The position numbers were made by a program, and so were the translations under genes. A DNA stretch of 64,000 nucleotides. It comes from a virus. The DNA lies in the IMG/VR virus record IMGVR_UViG_3300021960_000054, positions 1 through 64,000 of that record; one strand, 5' to 3'. Below are positions 13,613-58,047 of the stretch, in pieces (position 1 is the first letter of the stretch; each line of letters begins with the position of its first letter). Below the pieces are notes generated by a model. It was not told the origin of the DNA and made no database searches. It saw only the letters and a program-made list of their open reading frames with translations.

Positions 13613-14320
13613 ATGTCTAAGAAATTTACAGATATTAAAGACGCAATTGTAAAAGAACAAATTGCAGATTTAAATGAAGGTGTTTATGATCCAGGTATTT
13701 TCAAAGCATTCTTCTTAGCAGGCGGACCTGGTTCAGGTAAGTCTTATGTTCAAAAACAAACAACTGGCGGTATGGGTCTCAAAGTAGTTAACTCGGATGA
13801 CATTTATGAGAAGATGTTAAAAGATGCTGGTATGGATACAACACCAGAAGATATCTACTCAGACAAAGGTCAAGAAATTCGCGGACAGGCAAAGAAAGTG
13901 ACAAAAGCAAGACAATCAAATTTTTTAATGGGTCGTCTTGGTGTTGTTATTGATGGTACTGGCAAAGACTTTGAGAAAATTCAAAGACAAGCGGCGTCAC
14001 TAAAGCAACTCGGTTATGATACTTATATGATTTTTGTTAATACTTCAGAAGAAGTTGCACAAGAAAGAAATCAAGCAAGAAAAAGAACACTACCAAGAGA
14101 AGAAGTCAAATCAATGTGGATGGATGTTCAAAAGAACATTGGTGCATTTCAGCGTTTCTTTGGTAGCAAGAACTTTATCATTCTCGACAACAATGGTCCT
14201 AATGATGATATTCTACAAATGGTCTTTAAGAGAGTTCGTAACATGGTCAACACTCCAGTTAAGAACTACATTGCAAAGCAGTGGATTGCTAACGAACTAG
14301 AAAAGAAAAGAAGGAGATAA
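13613..14320 (+). CDS. P-loop kinase (zeta toxin/AAA_33/Pnk-like)
   Basis: FLAGGPGSGKS Walker A, VNSDD, VIDGT, ERNQARKR lid motif. Confidence 0.85.
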   Translation: MSKKFTDIKDAIVKEQIADLNEGVYDPGIFKAFFLAGGPGSGKSYVQKQTTGGMGLKVVNSDDIYEKMLKDAGMDTTPEDIYSDKGQEIRGQAKKVTKARQSNFLMGRLGVVIDGTGKDFEKIQRQAASLKQLGYDTYMIFVNTSEEVAQERNQARKRTLPREEVKSMWMDVQKNIGAFQRFFGSKNFIILDNNGPNDDILQMVFKRVRNMVNTPVKNYIAKQWIANELEKKRRR

Positions 14321-24382: not shown

Positions 24383-24591
24383 TGATTGATTGTTTTGTAA
24401 ATGGCAGTGTGAAGTTGTCGAAAGGAACTACCTTGAAAGAATTCATGGAGTTCATGTGGGACTTGAAAAGTTTTGATGGTCTTAATGTTGTTGACAAGTG
24501 GGTAGGGTTTGGCGCACTGCCAGATATCAAACTTGTTCTAGAGAATGGTCATCAGATTAGTTGTAAGCGATTATGGCAAGAGAGAGTGTAA
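24382..24591 (+). CDS. Hypothetical protein
   Basis: GAGG RBS; coupled. Confidence 0.65.
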   Translation: MIDCFVNGSVKLSKGTTLKEFMEFMWDLKSFDGLNVVDKWVGFGALPDIKLVLENGHQISCKRLWQERV

Positions 24592-27252: not shown

Positions 27253-27663
27253 ATGAAACAACATCCCAGAGCAAATCTAACAGGCGGTTATGTAAAAGCA
27301 GGATACGAGAATGTAAAGATAAGTGAAGTGAAAGATTACTTTCTCATTCATGGTAAGAACAATTCTAATCCTGATGTATACAGAAGTCTTGCAGAAGTGG
27401 AACAGTATATCAACAGTCTTACTTCAGAGAAACATAAGTCACGCATAGTGATTGTGCCTTTCTCTGTTAGTGAAGAAACTTTCGACAGAGAGATATATGA
27501 TATTATACACTTTGTATATGATAGATTACAACCTGAAGAATACACTAAGTGGAAGATGGGTGAATCCTCAATCTTACATTGGGGTATTATTCAACGCTAT
27601 AAAGAACGCTATTACAGTGACAGAGAAGAAGCACTGAACCGCCGTGCGATGCGCCGACTTTAA
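27253..27663 (+). CDS. Hypothetical protein
   Basis: ORF track. Confidence 0.65.
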   Translation: MKQHPRANLTGGYVKAGYENVKISEVKDYFLIHGKNNSNPDVYRSLAEVEQYINSLTSEKHKSRIVIVPFSVSEETFDREIYDIIHFVYDRLQPEEYTKWKMGESSILHWGIIQRYKERYYSDREEALNRRAMRRL

Positions 27664-27844
27664 AAACGTAATTTTTACTCCGGAAAAATTTTTGGAAACA
27701 GCATAGGGGGTAGTGCGTTTTCAGTTTTCGTGCAGTCGAATGTTTGCCGTACTCTGAGTCCGTTGGAACGTGCCGGCGCTAAGAGCGAGACTTAACCCCT
27801 CCGCACTCACAAAAATATTGCATATGTAGGGGGGTGTACCCTTC

Positions 27845-27873
27845 AGTATATCACAGTGAGTAACAGTTGTCAA
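27845..27873 (-). promoter_or_regulatory. Sigma70 promoter pointing into non-coding DNA
   Basis: TTGACA-N17-TATACT. Confidence 0.75.
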
Positions 27874-27875
27874 GT

Positions 27876-27935
27876 AAAAAATAAAAAAAAGCGACACCCT
27901 ACAACCCTTTGTCAGTAAGGGTTACAGGGCATCGC
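27876..27935 (-). terminator. Long hairpin terminator
   Basis: GCGATGCCCT...AACCCTT-actgaca-AAGGGTT...AGGGTGTCGC followed by TTTTTTTTATTTTTT. Confidence 0.8.
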
Positions 27936-27979
27936 CGAGACAACGTAGGGAGAAAGGGAGAGAAAAACCCTACTAGTCT

Positions 27980-28228
27980 CTAACTTGCAGTCGCGTCTAC
28001 TCGTTCTACGCCACACAGTTTGTAACCGGTGACCTTGCGACCGTCTTTGAGTGGGATCACACCATAGGGTGTCTTTGTTTTAATTTCCCACATATACGTT
28101 GAGATGCGGTACATGTTCACGCCTGCTATCTCACACTGTTGTTTGAACTCATCTATAGTAGCAGTATAGTTATCTGCTTCTTTCAGTACGTTCAGTACTT
28201 TTTCATATTGACCCATTGCTTTTGCCAT
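27980..28228 (-). CDS. Small winged-helix-like hypothetical protein
   Basis: AAGGAG RBS; YRISTYMWEIK...KDGRKVTGY. Confidence 0.7.
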   Translation of the reverse strand: MAKAMGQYEKVLNVLKEADNYTATIDEFKQQCEIAGVNMYRISTYMWEIKTKTPYGVIPLKDGRKVTGYKLCGVERVDATAS

Positions 28229-28231
28229 TAT

Positions 28232-28414
28232 CTACTCCTTATCATATGTAACGAATGCTACACCAATCATTGCGAAACCTGCTAATGCGAACAGCAGTAC
28301 TTCAGTGAGTGACAGTGCGTTCTCCATACACTTGCCATCACAGTCGCTACCTACAGCGCCTAGTACTAATAGAAATCCGGTGATGCCTAATGCACCCGCG
28401 ATTATATTACGCAT
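28232..28414 (-). CDS. Two-TM membrane protein
   Basis: Two hydrophobic helices flanking DCDGKC. Confidence 0.68.
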   Translation of the reverse strand: MRNIIAGALGITGFLLVLGAVGSDCDGKCMENALSLTEVLLFALAGFAMIGVAFVTYDKE

Positions 28415-28578
28415 ACTGACGTACCTCTACTAAGTTCATTGCGTTAACACCAAATGTGCCGTCTGCGAGAATAGCATCACACTGCTCTTCTGTCAGCGCG
28501 GTAACTATCTGCGTTTCACCATTCAATTTAAATTCAATTTCAAACATATTCACTCACTTTCATTCTCATTATATACAC

Positions 28579-28607
28579 AGTATATCACAGTCTTATACAG
28601 ATGTCAA
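28579..28607 (-). promoter_or_regulatory. Sigma70 promoter
   Basis: TTGACA-N17-TATACT. Confidence 0.78.
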
Positions 28608-28615
28608 GCACTAAT

Positions 28616-28816
28616 TTACACTTTTGCCATATAATATTCATTCCACGCATCGTCACACACACTGGTAATGATATCACCAGGGATGAAATCAGGTAACTGA
28701 TTGTCAACAATACTATAGAACTCATTAATCGTCTGACACTCACTAACCATAGTCTCAGTTATAACGTCATAGACACGCTCTTCGCAGTCCATTGCCCATG
28801 CTTTTACAGCACCCAT
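28616..28816 (-). CDS. Early hypothetical protein (start MGAVKAWAMD)
   Basis: AGAAAGG RBS; internal ATG of ORF 28616-28888. Confidence 0.7.
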   Translation of the reverse strand: MGAVKAWAMDCEERVYDVITETMVSECQTINEFYSIVDNQLPDFIPGDIITSVCDDAWNEYYMAKV

Positions 28817-28839
28817 AATAGAACCTTTCTGTAAGTAGA

Positions 28840-28920
28840 GAGACATGCAGTTAAATCTAGCATCGCGCCAGTTGTGTCGGTGACACATGCAGTTAAATCT
28901 AGCGATGTTCCAGTTGTCTC
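28840..28920 (-). repeat. Tandem 42-bp-period repeat with cross-pairing ends in a 5' leader
   Basis: ACATGCAGTTAAATCTAGC at 28843-28861 and 28885-28903, each followed after 6 nt by CCAGTTGT(G/C)TCG. Confidence 0.9.
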
Positions 28921-28947
28921 GTTATCGTTAATCTTTATCATGTATAC

Positions 28948-28976
28948 ATTATAGCAAAGACAATGGCAATTGTCAA
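28948..28976 (-). promoter_or_regulatory. Consensus sigma70 promoter
   Basis: TTGACA-N17-TATAAT. Confidence 0.88.
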
Positions 28977-29316
28977 GCATTATTTTCACTTTTTTTCACT
29001 TTTTTTTAAAATAGTTGGTAAGTGTTGTATTTTTGCAACAGTGTAAGTTACTGTTTTTGTGTGGTTCTTTTCCCTTGACAACGGCGCTCGTATGTGCGAA
29101 AAAGCAACTTACTATTTCTAAACGTATTTAATACTGTTTATTCGCCCTTTTCGATAGTCACTGTATACACAACGATACACAAAACTATGCTAAACTTACC
29201 GATAATTCATGCTAATTCACAGTCTTTCACTCTATATGAATACTATGTGAACTAGTTAAACAGTATGTGAATAAGACCGATATAAGGTAATGTTACTTCT
29301 ATTGTTTGAGTGATTA

Positions 29317-29541
29317 TCATACCCATTCTACTTCTATACCAAAGACTGGACTAGTTTCTTGCTTCTGTGTGATGTGATTGAACCCGCTATTGAAGTAAGT
29401 AGTCATATTGATTACTGTCTTATCTTTATAGTCTTCTTTCAGCATTGCGAAACATGCTTGTACTGCTTCGTTCTTCTTATCACCTGTGATTGGATGTGTC
29501 GTATAGTTTACGTCATTCATTGTGATTGTTTCTACAGTCAT
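29317..29541 (-). CDS. Hypothetical protein
   Basis: ORF track; coupled. Confidence 0.65.
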   Translation of the reverse strand: MTVETITMNDVNYTTHPITGDKKNEAVQACFAMLKEDYKDKTVINMTTYFNSGFNHITQKQETSPVFGIEVEWV

Positions 29542-29702
29542 TATTTTACCTTCTTATACATTGTTGCGATTTTCATGATTGTGTATGCGAGAAGTGATAT
29601 TATCGTTGCCGCGCTTTCATTGAATACATCATACATTACGAATGCGAGTGAAAGCGCAACGATGAGTGGTATTGCTTCTTGCTGTATGTCTTCTCTGTTC
29701 AT
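29541..29702 (-). CDS. Small two-TM membrane protein (start MNREDIQQ)
   Basis: ATGA overlap with the HNH gene. Confidence 0.55.
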   Translation of the reverse strand: MNREDIQQEAIPLIVALSLAFVMYDVFNESAATIISLLAYTIMKIATMYKKVK

Positions 29703-30118
29703 GCGACTTTCTTTATGAATACATGAGGTAACGATAAGTAGTCTCGATTGTCTCTCGTCTTTAGACGATGACAGCAAGCGCACAGTGTTTGCAGATTGCT
29801 CTCTTCATTGTTGTCGTGATTACCATCAATGTGGTCGACTTCTAACTGCCATTCAGGATCAATGATTGTTGTTGTGCATTTACCGTGACCTAGACGATTA
29901 TCGATGTTTTCACAATACGTCTTGCGATGCTGTTTGTATACCCAACCACCAATGGCGTAATTCATAGCGTGATGCTTGGTGCAGACGTAACCCTCTTCAA
30001 CACCGAATTCTTCACGAACCCATGTTGATTTGCGCCATTTTGGATTAGCAGTTGTGCTTGTATTTTGTGCGTTTTTACCGCAATTGGGAACTTGACATTT
30101 GGGACGATTGGTAACCAT
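29699..30118 (-). CDS. HNH endonuclease
   Basis: LEVDHIDGNHDNNEESNLQTLCACCHRLKT; N-terminal Cys cluster. Confidence 0.9.
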   Translation of the reverse strand: MVTNRPKCQVPNCGKNAQNTSTTANPKWRKSTWVREEFGVEEGYVCTKHHAMNYAIGGWVYKQHRKTYCENIDNRLGHGKCTTTIIDPEWQLEVDHIDGNHDNNEESNLQTLCACCHRLKTRDNRDYLSLPHVFIKKVA

Positions 30119-30139
30119 TTGAAACCTCTCTATTACAAT

Positions 30140-30183
30140 TCATCTTACTTATATAATATAACAGAACTTTACATAAATGTCAA
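30140..30183 (-). promoter_or_regulatory. Early promoter with TAAGATGA leader
   Basis: TTGACA-N17-TATATT...TAAGATGAA. Confidence 0.78.
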
Positions 30184-30262
30184 GTAAAAAGAAGCATAAA
30201 AATCATAATAATTGCGAAACAAATGGATATGACTATAAGCATCCATAAGTATTCGAACTCAT

Positions 30263-30475
30263 TCATTGCTCTTGTGATTGCTCTTCTGCTTGATGTTTCC
30301 AGTGCTTTATGAACTCGTATGACCCATCTCGCATCTTTTGAATGTGTACATAACCGTGTTCTTCTAATGTCTCTGTATAACGCTCTAATGCGTCTTTAGT
30401 AGATTGCCATTTACCGAAACGCCATGCGCTGAAAAGCATTGCTGTTGCTAATATTGTGTGAATATACGGGTCCAT
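30263..30475 (-). CDS. Small membrane-anchored protein
   Basis: AAGGAG RBS; N-terminal TM. Confidence 0.68.
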   Translation of the reverse strand: MDPYIHTILATAMLFSAWRFGKWQSTKDALERYTETLEEHGYVHIQKMRDGSYEFIKHWKHQAEEQSQEQ

Positions 30476-30493
30476 AAATTCTCCTTATTGGTA

Positions 30494-31033
30494 TTATTTA
30501 TATTTTACTACTATATTCATTACAAGTCGCCTAGAAGCATCTACCGGACTGCTAGAAGCATGATTAAGAAGACTACTGAAGTGTATTGCATTATTCATTG
30601 TAGGTGGTATTTCGAAATTCTCACCTGTCTCAGGAAAGAAGAACGTATTACCGTCTGCCGCGTTGATATAGTATAGAATGCTATGAAACTTGTCTGCATC
30701 AGGCGCATCTGTATTAACATCGGTGTGCATTGCATGAAATGGTAATGCTGAAGTTGCTCTTATTCGCGGAAACAGCATATTTACCTTCGCACGGATTACC
30801 TCACAATCAGGAATGTCAAGTGCAGTGAGTATTGCATCTACCCACTTGACGCCTGGTTGATACATAAGACTATTGCCGGATTGAATAACTCTTGTAAATT
30901 GTGGACTATCATCACCAATGTAGTCATCTACAGTATTCTCTGAATATGACCAAAGAAAATCGGTGCGAGATACCGCTTCAAGTATCTCGCTATGTAATGC
31001 TTCACTGAGTACATTATCAAAAGTTTTAAACAT
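30494..31033 (-). CDS. 2OG-Fe(II) oxygenase
   Basis: RAKVN...HTD...SILYYINAADGNT...NHASS...RLVMN. Confidence 0.88.
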   Translation of the reverse strand: MFKTFDNVLSEALHSEILEAVSRTDFLWSYSENTVDDYIGDDSPQFTRVIQSGNSLMYQPGVKWVDAILTALDIPDCEVIRAKVNMLFPRIRATSALPFHAMHTDVNTDAPDADKFHSILYYINAADGNTFFFPETGENFEIPPTMNNAIHFSSLLNHASSSPVDASRRLVMNIVVKYK

Positions 31034-55466: not shown

Positions 55467-58047
55467 CAGATAGTCCTAACTGCTTCGCATAGTAAGGCAT
55501 ACGGCATGCCCAATATCCAGGTTTAGTTTTATCTTTCTTTGTGCTACACTGATGTCTTGCGGCGAATGACTTTCTCGCTTCAGGATCATTCAGTTTTATT
55601 TTCAGACCGGTGGTGTCACCCCACGAAACTTTTTTAATGTTTCCACTTGATGGGTCTTTTACATATACATAATACTTTTTAGGTCCACCCGCTTTAGGTT
55701 TGTTTAACTCAGGTTGCTCTTCTTCCATCATAGGACAATCAAGAGGCACATGTTGTCCTTCATATAATGCATGTGAACCAATGTCGGATTCAAGCAACTC
55801 AATGTCGAAACTATCTAAGAGGTCTCGGTTAAGGGTTTTCTTCCACTCATTAAATTGCTCATAGTACATCTCAGAACCAATGCGATATTCATTAGTCTCA
55901 ATCAACTGTGAGATTGGTTCATAACTTTCTTTTTTAGATTTCATTGCTTGAAGGCGCTTCATTTCTAATTTACGCATAGTTGGAAGTAAACGAATAGACA
56001 ATCTATCAATAACTTTCTTCTTACTCGCAATGAACTTTTCAATTTGTTGCTTTTGCGCCATACCTAATGTGCTATATGGTTTACCTTTAGTAAATCTCTT
56101 ACGCAACTTATTTCTTGCATGTCGCCTTGCTCTCTTCTTTAACTTTTCAGGAGAAGACATACGCTTCAATGCAATCATTCGTTTACGTTGAATACGCTTA
56201 GACATTCGGCGCATCATCATTGACCGTTTCATACGTTGCGCTGGTGTTAATACTTCATCCATATTAATCCACTGATAGTCAGCGGCAAGCATTTCGTCAT
56301 CATCAGGAATCTCATTAGAGTCCACATCAACGCCATCATCTTCATCTTGGTCATTGGGAATTCCATCACCATCTTTATCTGGATATACATCTGCAAAATC
56401 TTCGATTTCGTCATAAGCATCGAATAAATCTGCGATTTGCTTTTCTAAACTCTCATCATCAACTTCATCAGGATCAGGAATATCAAGTTCTTTATCTTCA
56501 TCACTCTCTTCTAAAAATAAGTCAATGTTCCACTCTTCGCGCAACTCATCTTCTTCGTAGTGAGATAAACGACTATCATGCTCAGTAACATCTTTCGCCA
56601 TTGTGCGATACCACAATTTAATTTGCGGGTCTAATAGTCTCTTACCAACAGTAAATTTTCTAGCATCTCTGAACATCTTTTGAAGACGCTGTTGAACTTC
56701 TTGCTTGTTTGAACCAGCAACTAGCATCTTACCGACACCTTCAACTTCGACTTCAAAAGCAACTTCTGCTTGCTCTGTAAGACCTAAGTGTTCTTTGAAT
56801 GATTTGCGGGTTTTCTCTACTTCTTTAGATACTTTATCTAAGACTTCTTTTGCATTCTTCCCATCAATACCTAAAATAGGTGCTTCACCATCGCCCAAAA
56901 TCCAGTCTCCTGATGGGTCGTCTGGTGTTGTTCCTTGGACTGCTCCGCCTTGTTCTGGATAGTCTGCAATTGCTGGTACTGTTTTATGTGATGCTTCGCC
57001 GAACATCGCTTTGAACTTCTTAGTGTGCGTTGAAGGTTTTGTCTTTGCTGTCGCATCTCCAGGTGCTGGTTTGTAAGCACTTGGGTCGTCATCTGATTTT
57101 TCTGCGCCCTTCTTGAAATGTGCATCTCTGGTAGATTTGGTAGACTTGGACTTGAGTCCTGCAAAGTATTTTGCTGGTTGTGTACCGTCTTTATCGGCGA
57201 TATCTTTATCTTGTCTAACTTCGGTGTCATCGTCTTTCGCTGATTTCTTTTCTGTAAGGTCGGATATCCACTTTGTATGTACATTACCATCTGCTCCTTT
57301 GCAGTACAGGAAGTTTGTTCCTTGTTCTACGATTTCAAATTCTTCATTTAAATTTAAGTCTACTACAATATCACCAACATTAAAAATGTCGCCTACTAGA
57401 TATGCTTCTCTGAATGCAATACGCTCAAATTCCACATCTTCTTTAATTGAAAATACTTTACGAATTTCGTTATAAATTGCTTTCTTGTCTGCATCAGATA
57501 GTTTAGATGCTAATGCACCAGCAAACTTCTTATAGTTACCTTGCTTCGCATAGTCGCGCAATAGAGTACCAGAGATACCCTCAACACCTTTTGCATTAGG
57601 GTCGCGCTTGCCTGCAGACTTTGATGAGATGGAATTAAAGTTAAATTCTTTTCCGTTGTATTTTTTGATGAGATTGACCATCTCACCTTCGCGGTCGTCA
57701 CCAAATACTAATGTGATATCTGTATAACCGTCCGCTTCTAATTCTTTTGCAATCTCAATGATTGTTCTTGCTCTAGATGATTTAACTGCAGAACCAAATG
57801 CCTTCTTTGCATACTTGACTTTATCTTTGTATGACAGAGGGTCTTTCTTATTGTTCTGAGTATGTGATAGATAAATTCGTGCGTCTGCACCAGATGCTTT
57901 CGCTTCTTTTGTTACTGCATTCGCGAGTTTTTCATGTCCTGCTGTAGGAGGATTCATGCGACCAAAAGAAAATACAACTTTCTTTTCTTTTGCTTCCTTC
58001 AGTTTTTGCTGAAGGTCTGTAAACTTTAATGTCATTTTTTCACCCAA
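55444..58047 (-). CDS. Multidomain protein with N-terminal HxGH nucleotidyltransferase (phage cytidyltransferase/NMNAT-like)
   Basis: FSFGRMNPPTAGHEKL, KDPLS, FGDDR, SAGKRD, ISGTLLR; C-terminal KKYYVYVK...KKVSWGD...RKSFAARHQC...YWAC domain. Confidence 0.88.
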   Translation of the reverse strand: MGEKMTLKFTDLQQKLKEAKEKKVVFSFGRMNPPTAGHEKLANAVTKEAKASGADARIYLSHTQNNKKDPLSYKDKVKYAKKAFGSAVKSSRARTIIEIAKELEADGYTDITLVFGDDREGEMVNLIKKYNGKEFNFNSISSKSAGKRDPNAKGVEGISGTLLRDYAKQGNYKKFAGALASKLSDADKKAIYNEIRKVFSIKEDVEFERIAFREAYLVGDIFNVGDIVVDLNLNEEFEIVEQGTNFLYCKGADGNVHTKWISDLTEKKSAKDDDTEVRQDKDIADKDGTQPAKYFAGLKSKSTKSTRDAHFKKGAEKSDDDPSAYKPAPGDATAKTKPSTHTKKFKAMFGEASHKTVPAIADYPEQGGAVQGTTPDDPSGDWILGDGEAPILGIDGKNAKEVLDKVSKEVEKTRKSFKEHLGLTEQAEVAFEVEVEGVGKMLVAGSNKQEVQQRLQKMFRDARKFTVGKRLLDPQIKLWYRTMAKDVTEHDSRLSHYEEDELREEWNIDLFLEESDEDKELDIPDPDEVDDESLEKQIADLFDAYDEIEDFADVYPDKDGDGIPNDQDEDDGVDVDSNEIPDDDEMLAADYQWINMDEVLTPAQRMKRSMMMRRMSKRIQRKRMIALKRMSSPEKLKKRARRHARNKLRKRFTKGKPYSTLGMAQKQQIEKFIASKKKVIDRLSIRLLPTMRKLEMKRLQAMKSKKESYEPISQLIETNEYRIGSEMYYEQFNEWKKTLNRDLLDSFDIELLESDIGSHALYEGQHVPLDCPMMEEEQPELNKPKAGGPKKYYVYVKDPSSGNIKKVSWGDTTGLKIKLNDPEARKSFAARHQCSTKKDKTKPGYWACRMPYYAKQLGLSGGGNYFW

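Follow-up and report, generated by a model that had tools for sequence, protein, structure and literature searches.

Comparative evidence for a conserved structured RNA module, predicted to fold as a swapped twin in an early mRNA leader of an uncultivated marine T4-like phage

The DNA studied here, called the window throughout, is a 64,000-nt stretch (positions 1 to 64,000) of IMG/VR virus record IMGVR_UViG_3300021960_000054 and forms part of a 72-kb viral contig (G000) rated about 40% complete. The 72-kb record carries genes for ribonucleotide reductase, a DnaB-type helicase, a UvsX-like recombinase and RegA, and its nearest named phages are Pelagibacter phage HTVC008M and its kin, with a DUF6267 protein about 48% identical; the source is an uncultivated marine T4-like phage. 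The RegA homologue (PF01818, E 3e-47) lies outside the window, at 68066-68428 of G000, so this phage possesses a T4-type gene for post-transcriptional control. The locus of interest is on the minus strand of the window, where an early promoter is followed by a repeat-containing leader and the gene for a protein of 66 amino acids. Its parts are as follows, with the pairing statistics taken from alignment A3 of the homologues described below.

28948..28976, minus strand: sigma70-type early promoter (-35 TTGACA at 28976-28971, 17-nt spacer with TG, -10 TATAAT at 28953-28948; 12/12)
28915..28920, minus strand: P1 5' strand GAGACA, pairing with 28845-28840 (both-side changes in 7/9 P1 pairs)
28910..28914, minus strand: junction segment ACUGG of unit 1 (invariant in 13/13 dimers and 19/19 monomers)
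28902..28907, minus strand: P2 5' strand CAUCGC, formerly "loop 1", pairing with 28866-28861
28888..28901, minus strand: conserved segment UAG-AUUUAA-CUG-CA of unit 1 (UAG, UUAAC and UG invariant; length change of 0-1 nt in mid-segment)
28873..28887, minus strand: central hairpin UGUGUC-ACC-GACACA, the P3 of the dimer (both-side changes in 6/6 pairs; 96.0% of cells paired)
28868..28872, minus strand: junction segment ACUGG of unit 2 (invariant across dimers)
28861..28866, minus strand: P2 3' strand GCGAUG, formerly "loop 2" (from covariation)
28846..28859, minus strand: conserved segment UAG-AUUUAA-CUG-CA of unit 2 (from sequence and dimer alignment)
28840..28845, minus strand: P1 3' strand UGUCUC (from sequence and covariation)
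28616..28830, minus strand: Shine-Dalgarno sequence AGAAAGG (28830-28824) and 66-aa gene (ATG 28816-28814; stop codon ending at 28616)

Judged from the promoter spacing, transcription would start near A28941. A first-pass annotation, made from the letters of the window, had placed a structured leader between a consensus sigma70 promoter and the ribosome binding site of the gene starting at 28816, and both flanking signals are indeed there: the promoter scores 12 of 12, with a TG just ahead of its -10 element, and the Shine-Dalgarno sequence is present. P1 ends at 28840 and the ATG lies 24 nt further on, at 28816. RNA beginning at A28941 would start with AUG, and a frame of 45 codons spans the whole element into the next gene (28804-28941, minus strand); it is open in the L044 type too and closed in the L023, L012 and L045 types. 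This frame is probably a by-product of the 42-nt repeat, which equals 14 codons. A leader peptide was considered and rejected: the frame left open in the window is interrupted by a stop in 5 of 13 distinct elements, four of which are stopped in all frames. The dimer elements are 89-94 nt long, and the element is non-coding.

Read directly from the window sequence, minus strand 28920-28840 consists of two 42-nt units, letter for letter as first annotated. Both have the layout ACAACTGG-N6-GCTAGATTTAACTGCATGT, which can also be given as ACAACUGG followed by six variable letters and GCUAGAUUUAACUGCAUGU. The 33-nt unit pattern matches twice in the 64-kb window and nowhere outside the element; 100 shuffles gave an expectation of 0 matches. 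Neither the outer pairing of GAGACA with TGTCTC nor the central pairing in TGTGTC-acc-GACACA contains a mismatch, and the supposedly variable loops are mutually complementary: CAUCGC (28907-28902) pairs with GCGAUG (28866-28861), a pairing that covaries in relatives. The two units agree perfectly at 27 of 42 positions, and the palindromic words CTAG and TTAA lie inside the repeat. These features would also suit a functionless recent tandem duplication, or a DNA operator made of direct and inverted repeats, a reading on which the homologues bear directly.

One relative, L012, was found via its neighbouring gene and has the same arrangement with different stems. Pattern scans supplied the others: a first scan of viral contigs returned 27 loci, 7 of them genuine by eye, while all 7 loci of a second scan and all 28 of a scan of metagenomes were genuine. 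Relatives contain two to three units, whose number and order vary. A covariance model (R1) gave 43 matches in 46 sources, one of them in the window; run on the whole 72-kb record, it gave one match on the element and an extra one at 13633-13690 of G000 with an E-value of 0.87. Six other viral records, searched whole with R1, hold one true copy each. A further R1 match, in record G004 (24444-24517, E 0.006), was discarded as lying inside an ORF.

Covariation was assessed in two alignments. In A1, a MAFFT alignment of 13 distinct dimer elements, both-side changes occur in 6 of 9 pairs of P1, 4 of 6 pairs of the central hairpin and 4 of 5 pairs of the inter-loop helix P2, the last being paired in 100% of cells; RNAalifold, applied to A1, independently places the inter-repeat helix inside P1. 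A3 contains 17 distinct rows from viral and metagenome contigs, with distant types added. Because its rows were fitted to the model, A3 leans towards it; A1 was not so fitted, yet it agrees. Over the helices P1, P2 and P3, both-side changes are seen in 18 of the 21 pairs of A3, including 5 of 6 in P2 (95.8% of cells paired), and 93.1% of all cells are paired, compared with 72.0% in shuffles and 26-46% in controls with slid partners. On each of five measures, all 500 shuffles fell short of the observed value. P1 is 7-9 bp long in most relatives. The window and L065 have the same two P2 strands in swapped order, and the L017 type, whose unit 1 is without CUAG, keeps an 8-bp inter-unit helix.

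The three helices are thus kept through both-side changes in homologues that are 60-100% identical, and the orientation of the element relative to promoter and gene is constant in all relatives. A DNA-binding site would have no need of covarying stems. The duplication or operator reading is therefore close to refuted. Covariation in homologues is also the test by which the first annotator would have had its proposal judged, and it speaks against a simple recent duplication. The element is a conserved structured RNA, and we regard the existence and the predicted fold of this RNA as near certain.

The fold differs in one respect from what was originally proposed. The compensatory outer and central stems, the location on the transcribed strand as a structured 5' leader, the pseudo-twofold symmetry and the presentation of two identical conserved segments all hold up, the stems covarying in homologues and the two units carrying the same invariant letters. 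The proposed four-way junction with two CUGG/CUAG hairpins is not supported: the letters of these hairpins never vary, so there is no covariation evidence for them, and their "loops" pair together instead (4 of 5 pairs with both-side changes, 100% of cells paired). The best description of the window element is a pair of three-way junctions (or of elaborate internal loops) sharing one swapped P2, with pseudo-twofold symmetry and two identical sets of invariant junction letters. Thermodynamics contributes little to this picture. The folding energy of the window element is unremarkable (z -0.25 for 136 nt, z -1.78 for 84 nt), as it is in two of four variant elements, and support for the structure comes from the homologues. 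Rod and cruciform differ by about 2 kcal/mol or less, so nearest-neighbour energy cannot choose between junctions with a shared P2 and a rod or cruciform.

Comparison of sequences further indicates that the repeat unit is a short form of a wider module, P1-ACUGGA-P2-UAG-P3-ACUGAA-P1', organized as a three-way junction. In the divergent contig L049 the segment after UAG holds a small extra hairpin. A scan of viral contigs for the long form returned 26 loci, against our estimate of 1-2 expected, and 22 of the 26 were genuine by eye. A typical monomer consists of P1, ACUGGA, a P2 hairpin with a stable tetraloop, the P3 arm UAGG-N-UUAAGAR-N'-C, ACUGAA and P1'. In a readily obtained alignment of 19 monomers (A6), both-side changes occur in 7 of 7 pairs of P1 and 3 of 4 pairs of P2; the variable inner pair of P3 is GC in 7, UA in 7, AU in 4 and CG in 1 and thus paired in 100% of rows; and the covariation score is 0.661, compared with 0.199 in shuffles, none of 500 shuffles reaching it. 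The core of the module comprises about 15 invariant junction letters, with helices free to vary, and the RNAs of module and dimer type range from 54 to 94 nt in length.

In monomers the U of UAG pairs with the A that follows ACUGG and so closes a local P2, and the letter before UAG varies within P2. Hence the "CUAG" of the window is a P2 letter plus UAG, and CUGG/CUAG hairpins are not a conserved feature; the reading of CUAG as a hairpin partner is not supported by these monomers or by the L017 type mentioned above. Both window units contain ACUGG, UAG and ACUG-CA in this order with a covarying helix on each side. The segment UAG-AUUUAA-CUG-CA is a short form of the module's P3 arm plus junction, and the central hairpin occupies the place of the monomer P1 and closes the second module. 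A model built on monomers only (R2) also detects the dimer-type relatives of L037 and L049, and its single match in the 72-kb record falls on the element (28879-28923, E 0.078, 14.5 bits). Shared letters, shared topology and this weak R2 match are what ties the monomers to the window form.

The module is used in several arrangements. It stands in tandem in L089 and L100, with tandem copies also in L048; L096 contains three nested modules separated by 8-9-bp helices, and beside its long forms a short-form monomer on the same contig; in L094 and L107 the modules are circularly permuted and open at P2; L090 has a long-form swapped dimer with the topology seen in the window; and L097 has three modules within 1.4 kb, with still other P3 arms.

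Searches of known families and genomes returned nothing that resembles this RNA. Rfam 15 covariance models (gathering score, or E <= 10) had 0 matches in window positions 27500-30500 and none on the elements of 7 homologous dimer loci or 5 monomer loci, in agreement with the first impression that no known family was involved. Megablast and blastn of the region against named phages gave nothing on the element, all 14 weak matches falling on the A-rich promoter part, and R1 had no match in the complete genomes of Pelagibacter phage HTVC008M, Methylophilales phage Melnitz and phage C48C1 (0/3). A blastn search with one monomer against named phages (43 records) yielded only a 27-nt chance match in a tail gene of a Staphylococcus phage. 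The two-unit pattern, which is strict, had three hits when one genome per prokaryote species was scanned, all of them chance hits in coding-like sequence. No such motif is named in the literature that we searched for the motif letters and for surveys of structured phage RNAs. We thus found no description of this RNA in Rfam 15, the three named relatives, the named phage records searched by BLAST or the literature searched. A 2023 survey lists 8,495 unnamed candidate structured RNAs from IMG/VR, and its main text names no such motif (PMC10690425). That catalogue shares its data source and its type of evidence (covariation, at least three IMG/VR sites) with the RNA described here, and the module may be listed among its unnamed DNAVirus_X entries (PMC10690425).

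A sigma70-like promoter lies within 80 nt upstream of 38 of the 39 dimer-type elements for which 70 nt or more of preceding sequence is available, compared with 24 of 1522 control tiles of the window. The sole exception is the second element of a tandem pair. The element lies at least 28 nt downstream of the -10 element, and in L058 the promoter and element are duplicated as a whole. The module at large is less strictly placed: of 25 sites, 10 have a promoter upstream and 8 have a start codon no more than 35 nt away, and some modules follow directly on a stop codon, with a U-run or the next promoter after them (L088, L110). The downstream genes of the module at large are diverse or absent. Such differing contexts point to a general factor and not to one gene.

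This placement could be that of an antitermination-type cis element in the manner of lambda nut or HK022 put, whose nascent RNA, by itself or together with a phage or Nus factor, would bind RNA polymerase shortly after the early promoter and so alter elongation or termination further downstream. Proximity to a promoter in nearly all dimer elements, monomers located behind promoters or between a stop codon and a U-run or next promoter, and the lack of a tie to any single gene all suit such a role. The lambda sites nutL and nutR are comparably placed, behind promoters or just after a stop codon. The transcription unit in the window is short, however, and the next gene has its own promoter (11/12, 28607-28579), so that read-through is not obviously needed. 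In addition, no N-like or Q-like protein was identified, and the Rfam search revealed no sequence relation to known nut or put RNAs. We consider an antitermination role distinctly unlikely.

For the dimer type the downstream gene is less variable. One family of very acidic four-helix proteins of 59-72 aa accounts for the next gene in 8 of 9 two-unit types. The 66-aa protein in the window is likewise very acidic and, in its fold model (pLDDT 87), has four helices; it has no fold match in the PDB (best E 2.7), no Pfam or PHROGs family and no tblastn match in named phages, and all 40 clusters related to it are unnamed. A distant member of this family is preceded by a plain short leader. As a very acidic protein is a poor candidate for binding RNA, autoregulation is unlikely.

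Nor does the leader look like a self-contained switch. There is no terminator between the element and the 66-aa gene, the nearest being at 27936-27890. Pairing of the leader with the start region gave duplex z-scores from -2.6 to +1.2 in 10 types, a signal that is not consistent. In its MFE fold the leader is closed by a helix that joins its 5' end to the start codon; this helix was likewise dropped, 10 types giving no consistent signal. Lacking an expression platform, the element is more readily seen as a site for a factor than as a switch complete in itself. A riboswitch-like aptamer with two candidate ligand sites, tuning early genes to a host metabolite or signal, would account for the invariant junction letters, the covarying helices, the pseudo-twofold symmetry and the tandem arrangements. 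Some pseudo-symmetric riboswitches bind two ligands, and in the c-di-AMP riboswitches of the ydaO class two similar halves arose by internal duplication and two junctions are related by twofold symmetry. Like them, the window RNA has two similar halves with twofold-related junctions, each potentially one site; it is much smaller (about 81 nt), its half exists as a monomer, and it has neither a model match nor an expression platform. Against an aptamer stand also the absence of alternative pairing that would hide the ribosome site, the small downstream genes without assigned role (diverse or absent for the module at large), and the modules that follow stop codons. We therefore rate the riboswitch reading as improbable; riboswitch and dimeric-protein site, both put forward in the first-pass annotation, are possible roles for the element.

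Nor do the T4-type translational operators provide a close parallel, although they, as protein-binding sites, are likewise RNA elements on early or middle mRNAs of T4-type phages and the 72-kb record itself encodes RegA. As presented in the relevant passages of PMC3014915, the gene 32 pseudoknot, the gene 43 hairpin and the RegA sites overlap or abut the start codon, RegA sites being unstructured. The element described here, in contrast, ends 24 nt before the ATG and also occurs far from start codons: from the aligned block to the start codon there are 16-20 nt in most dimer types, and in other copies the start codon is 36 to 146 nt away or absent. The loop of the gene 43 operator contains UAAC (again according to those passages of PMC3014915), and the conserved segment in the window contains UUAAC.

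With fold and family established by the homologues, we infer a function as follows. The invariant junction letters would form a putative binding surface for a trans-acting factor, with the helices serving only as scaffold. The factor would most likely be a protein that many phage-host pairs share, supplied either by the host or by phages in which it is widespread. Once bound, it would act on early transcripts during or after transcription, influencing how they are translated, how stable they are or whether they are read through. Its target in the window would be the mRNA encoding the 66-aa acidic protein, and the twin form would give a dimer, or two molecules of the factor, a pair of sites. 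Invariant letters on an exchangeable scaffold, in many contexts and copy arrangements, argue for a widely available partner or for an RNA that is itself active. Our preferred prediction, to which we assign a probability of roughly 0.4, is that the element is a platform on early transcripts to which a trans-acting factor binds, and the nature of the partner and its effect are guesses. It counts against the platform that small self-cleaving ribozymes are just as typically circularly permuted, present in tandem and found in varied contexts. The weight left over by our several estimates of function belongs to something that we have not thought of.

Should the RNA itself be active, the ACUGGA/UAG/ACUGAA junction could represent a new class of autonomous functional RNA, for example a new small self-cleaving ribozyme, a candidate to which we give a rather small share of the probability. 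On such a view, a module behind early promoters and between genes would cut and insulate phage transcripts, and the window would hold a domain-swapped twin. Widened to include a universal RNase site, the proposal is that transcripts are trimmed just 3' of the P1 5' strand, leaving an mRNA that starts at CUGG with a folded 5' end, and the window element would be a natural twin; this broader candidate, too, we judge unlikely, if worth keeping in view. It draws on the small core of about 15 invariant junction letters with free helices, on the finding that any helix can be open (L094, L107), on the tandem copies in L089, L100 and L048, and on the lack of both a fixed gene partner and an expression platform. 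In hammerhead ribozymes of types I, II and III and in twister, permutation, tandem copies and occurrence in phage intergenic regions are typical. The module shares with the small three-way-junction ribozymes its few invariant letters, freely covarying helices, circular permutation, tandem copies and frequent presence in intergenic phage DNA, and differs from them in its junction letters, ACUGGA / UAG / ACUGAA. Swapped dimers and nested stacks are, to our knowledge, not known in classes of the hammerhead or twister type, and nested stacks of three modules, as in L096, would be unusual for ribozymes. The Rfam ribozyme families gave no match.

RNA libraries bear on the same question. Four metatranscriptome runs contain the stretch as contigs. 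Two contigs from different studies end, with no loose end, at 28912 and 28913, where the CUGG of unit 1 has its 5' boundary, 28 nt inside the predicted transcript. These stops are a weak hint: they may mark a processed 5' end, or coverage may be lost so near the transcript start, and contigs cannot prove ends. At the equivalent place in unit 2 (28871/28872), by contrast, no contig ends and one crosses. Two other contigs cover the whole element and extend past the predicted start, so they may derive from DNA or read-through.

The first-pass annotation also raised the idea of a decoy RNA. Like pseudo-ToxI, it would imitate the RNA of a type III antitoxin and so neutralise an endoribonuclease toxin of the host at an early stage of infection. 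Type III antitoxin RNAs (ToxI, CptI, TenpI), as outlined in the sections of PMC12283969 devoted to them, are 34-45-nt tandem direct repeats behind a promoter; in the window too, tandem direct repeats stand behind a promoter, and a phage version would be a counter-defence (PMC12283969). In the window and its relatives a strong early promoter is followed by two to three tandem repeats, each about 42 nt long and variable in number and order, which matches this description. The repeats differ in how they fold, since each repeat of the ToxI class forms its own pseudoknot (same sections of PMC12283969), whereas those of the window RNA pair mutually. They are not autonomous: P1 and P2 form between repeats and covary, the repeats being complementary where they differ. 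No A-rich cleavage stretch was identified in the RNA, the same module exists as single copies, no toxin gene lies downstream, and no terminator follows the repeats, although a phage mimic would need neither. PF13958 (ToxN) has no match in the 72-kb record, nor has it one in control genomes, and no cellular genome carries the two-unit pattern beyond the three chance hits. There was no Rfam match, and we take the ToxI family to be present in that database. With three of four tested defining features lacking, we regard a decoy of this kind as very improbable.

We also considered a target in trans, a perfect 12-nt complement of the conserved segment in the mRNA of a cytidylyltransferase-like gene (57779-57790), and rejected it, the complement being absent from the homologous gene of a relative that carries the element itself. 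On the plus strand at 57770-57795, CTAGAT-GATTTAACTGCA, antisense within the same gene, resembles the conserved segment of the element, probably by chance, because the relative G004 has not conserved it.

Roles are known for few of the conserved structured RNAs in tailed phages, and control of early transcripts outside T4 is poorly understood. The comparative support for the small phage RNA module defined here is very strong, and its habit is unusual in that one junction occurs singly, in tandem arrays, nested, in circularly permuted form and as a swapped twin. Should it be bound by a common factor, it would represent a new layer of early gene control common to many marine and other phages; if the RNA acts alone, it would found a new class of ribozyme or sensor and offer a compact part for RNA engineering.

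The surroundings of the element contain further features. Three near-perfect sigma70 promoters lie within 1.1 kb on the minus strand, at 28976-28948 (12/12), 28607-28579 (11/12) and 27873-27845 (11/12), and each precedes one or a few tiny genes. A very strong intrinsic terminator with a 20-bp stem followed by a T-run (27890-27936, minus strand) closes the small-gene cluster that starts at the element, and the next promoter comes directly after it. Upstream of the element's promoter, at 29065-29155 (minus strand), a block of some 90 non-coding nt, GAAAAGGGCGAA...CGAGCGCC..TGTCAAG, has been conserved by L012, L053, L045 and partly L058, relatives that are otherwise different. It shows no convincing consensus fold on either strand and no Rfam match, and no RNA-library contig covers 29040-29150.

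An A-rich stretch with part of the -35 region (28972-29007) recurs in run contigs, joined to other downstream sequences, and fits a shuffled promoter cassette of the PeSL kind. PeSL cassettes of T4-like phages, in the account given of them in PMC4122927, consist of a simple hairpin upstream of an early promoter. In both cases regulatory cassettes recur at early promoters where T4-like genomes are variable (same account); the element differs in lying downstream of the promoter, in being transcribed and in having invariant junction letters. In L049, a G+C-rich palindromic stem-loop with the flanks ...ACTTAG and CTAAGT..ATTGATTATAAAGG occurs on the minus strand at about 1330-1400, at about 620-700 and near 1800, and is repeated ahead of each cassette of promoter plus module, with similar stem-loops in L097 and L089; it looks like a second mobile intergenic element accompanying the module. 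Among the small early genes of the window there is also an HNH endonuclease gene (29699-30118, minus strand; 139 aa), whose 3' end overlaps the ORF at 29541-29783 and which may be a free-standing homing endonuclease.
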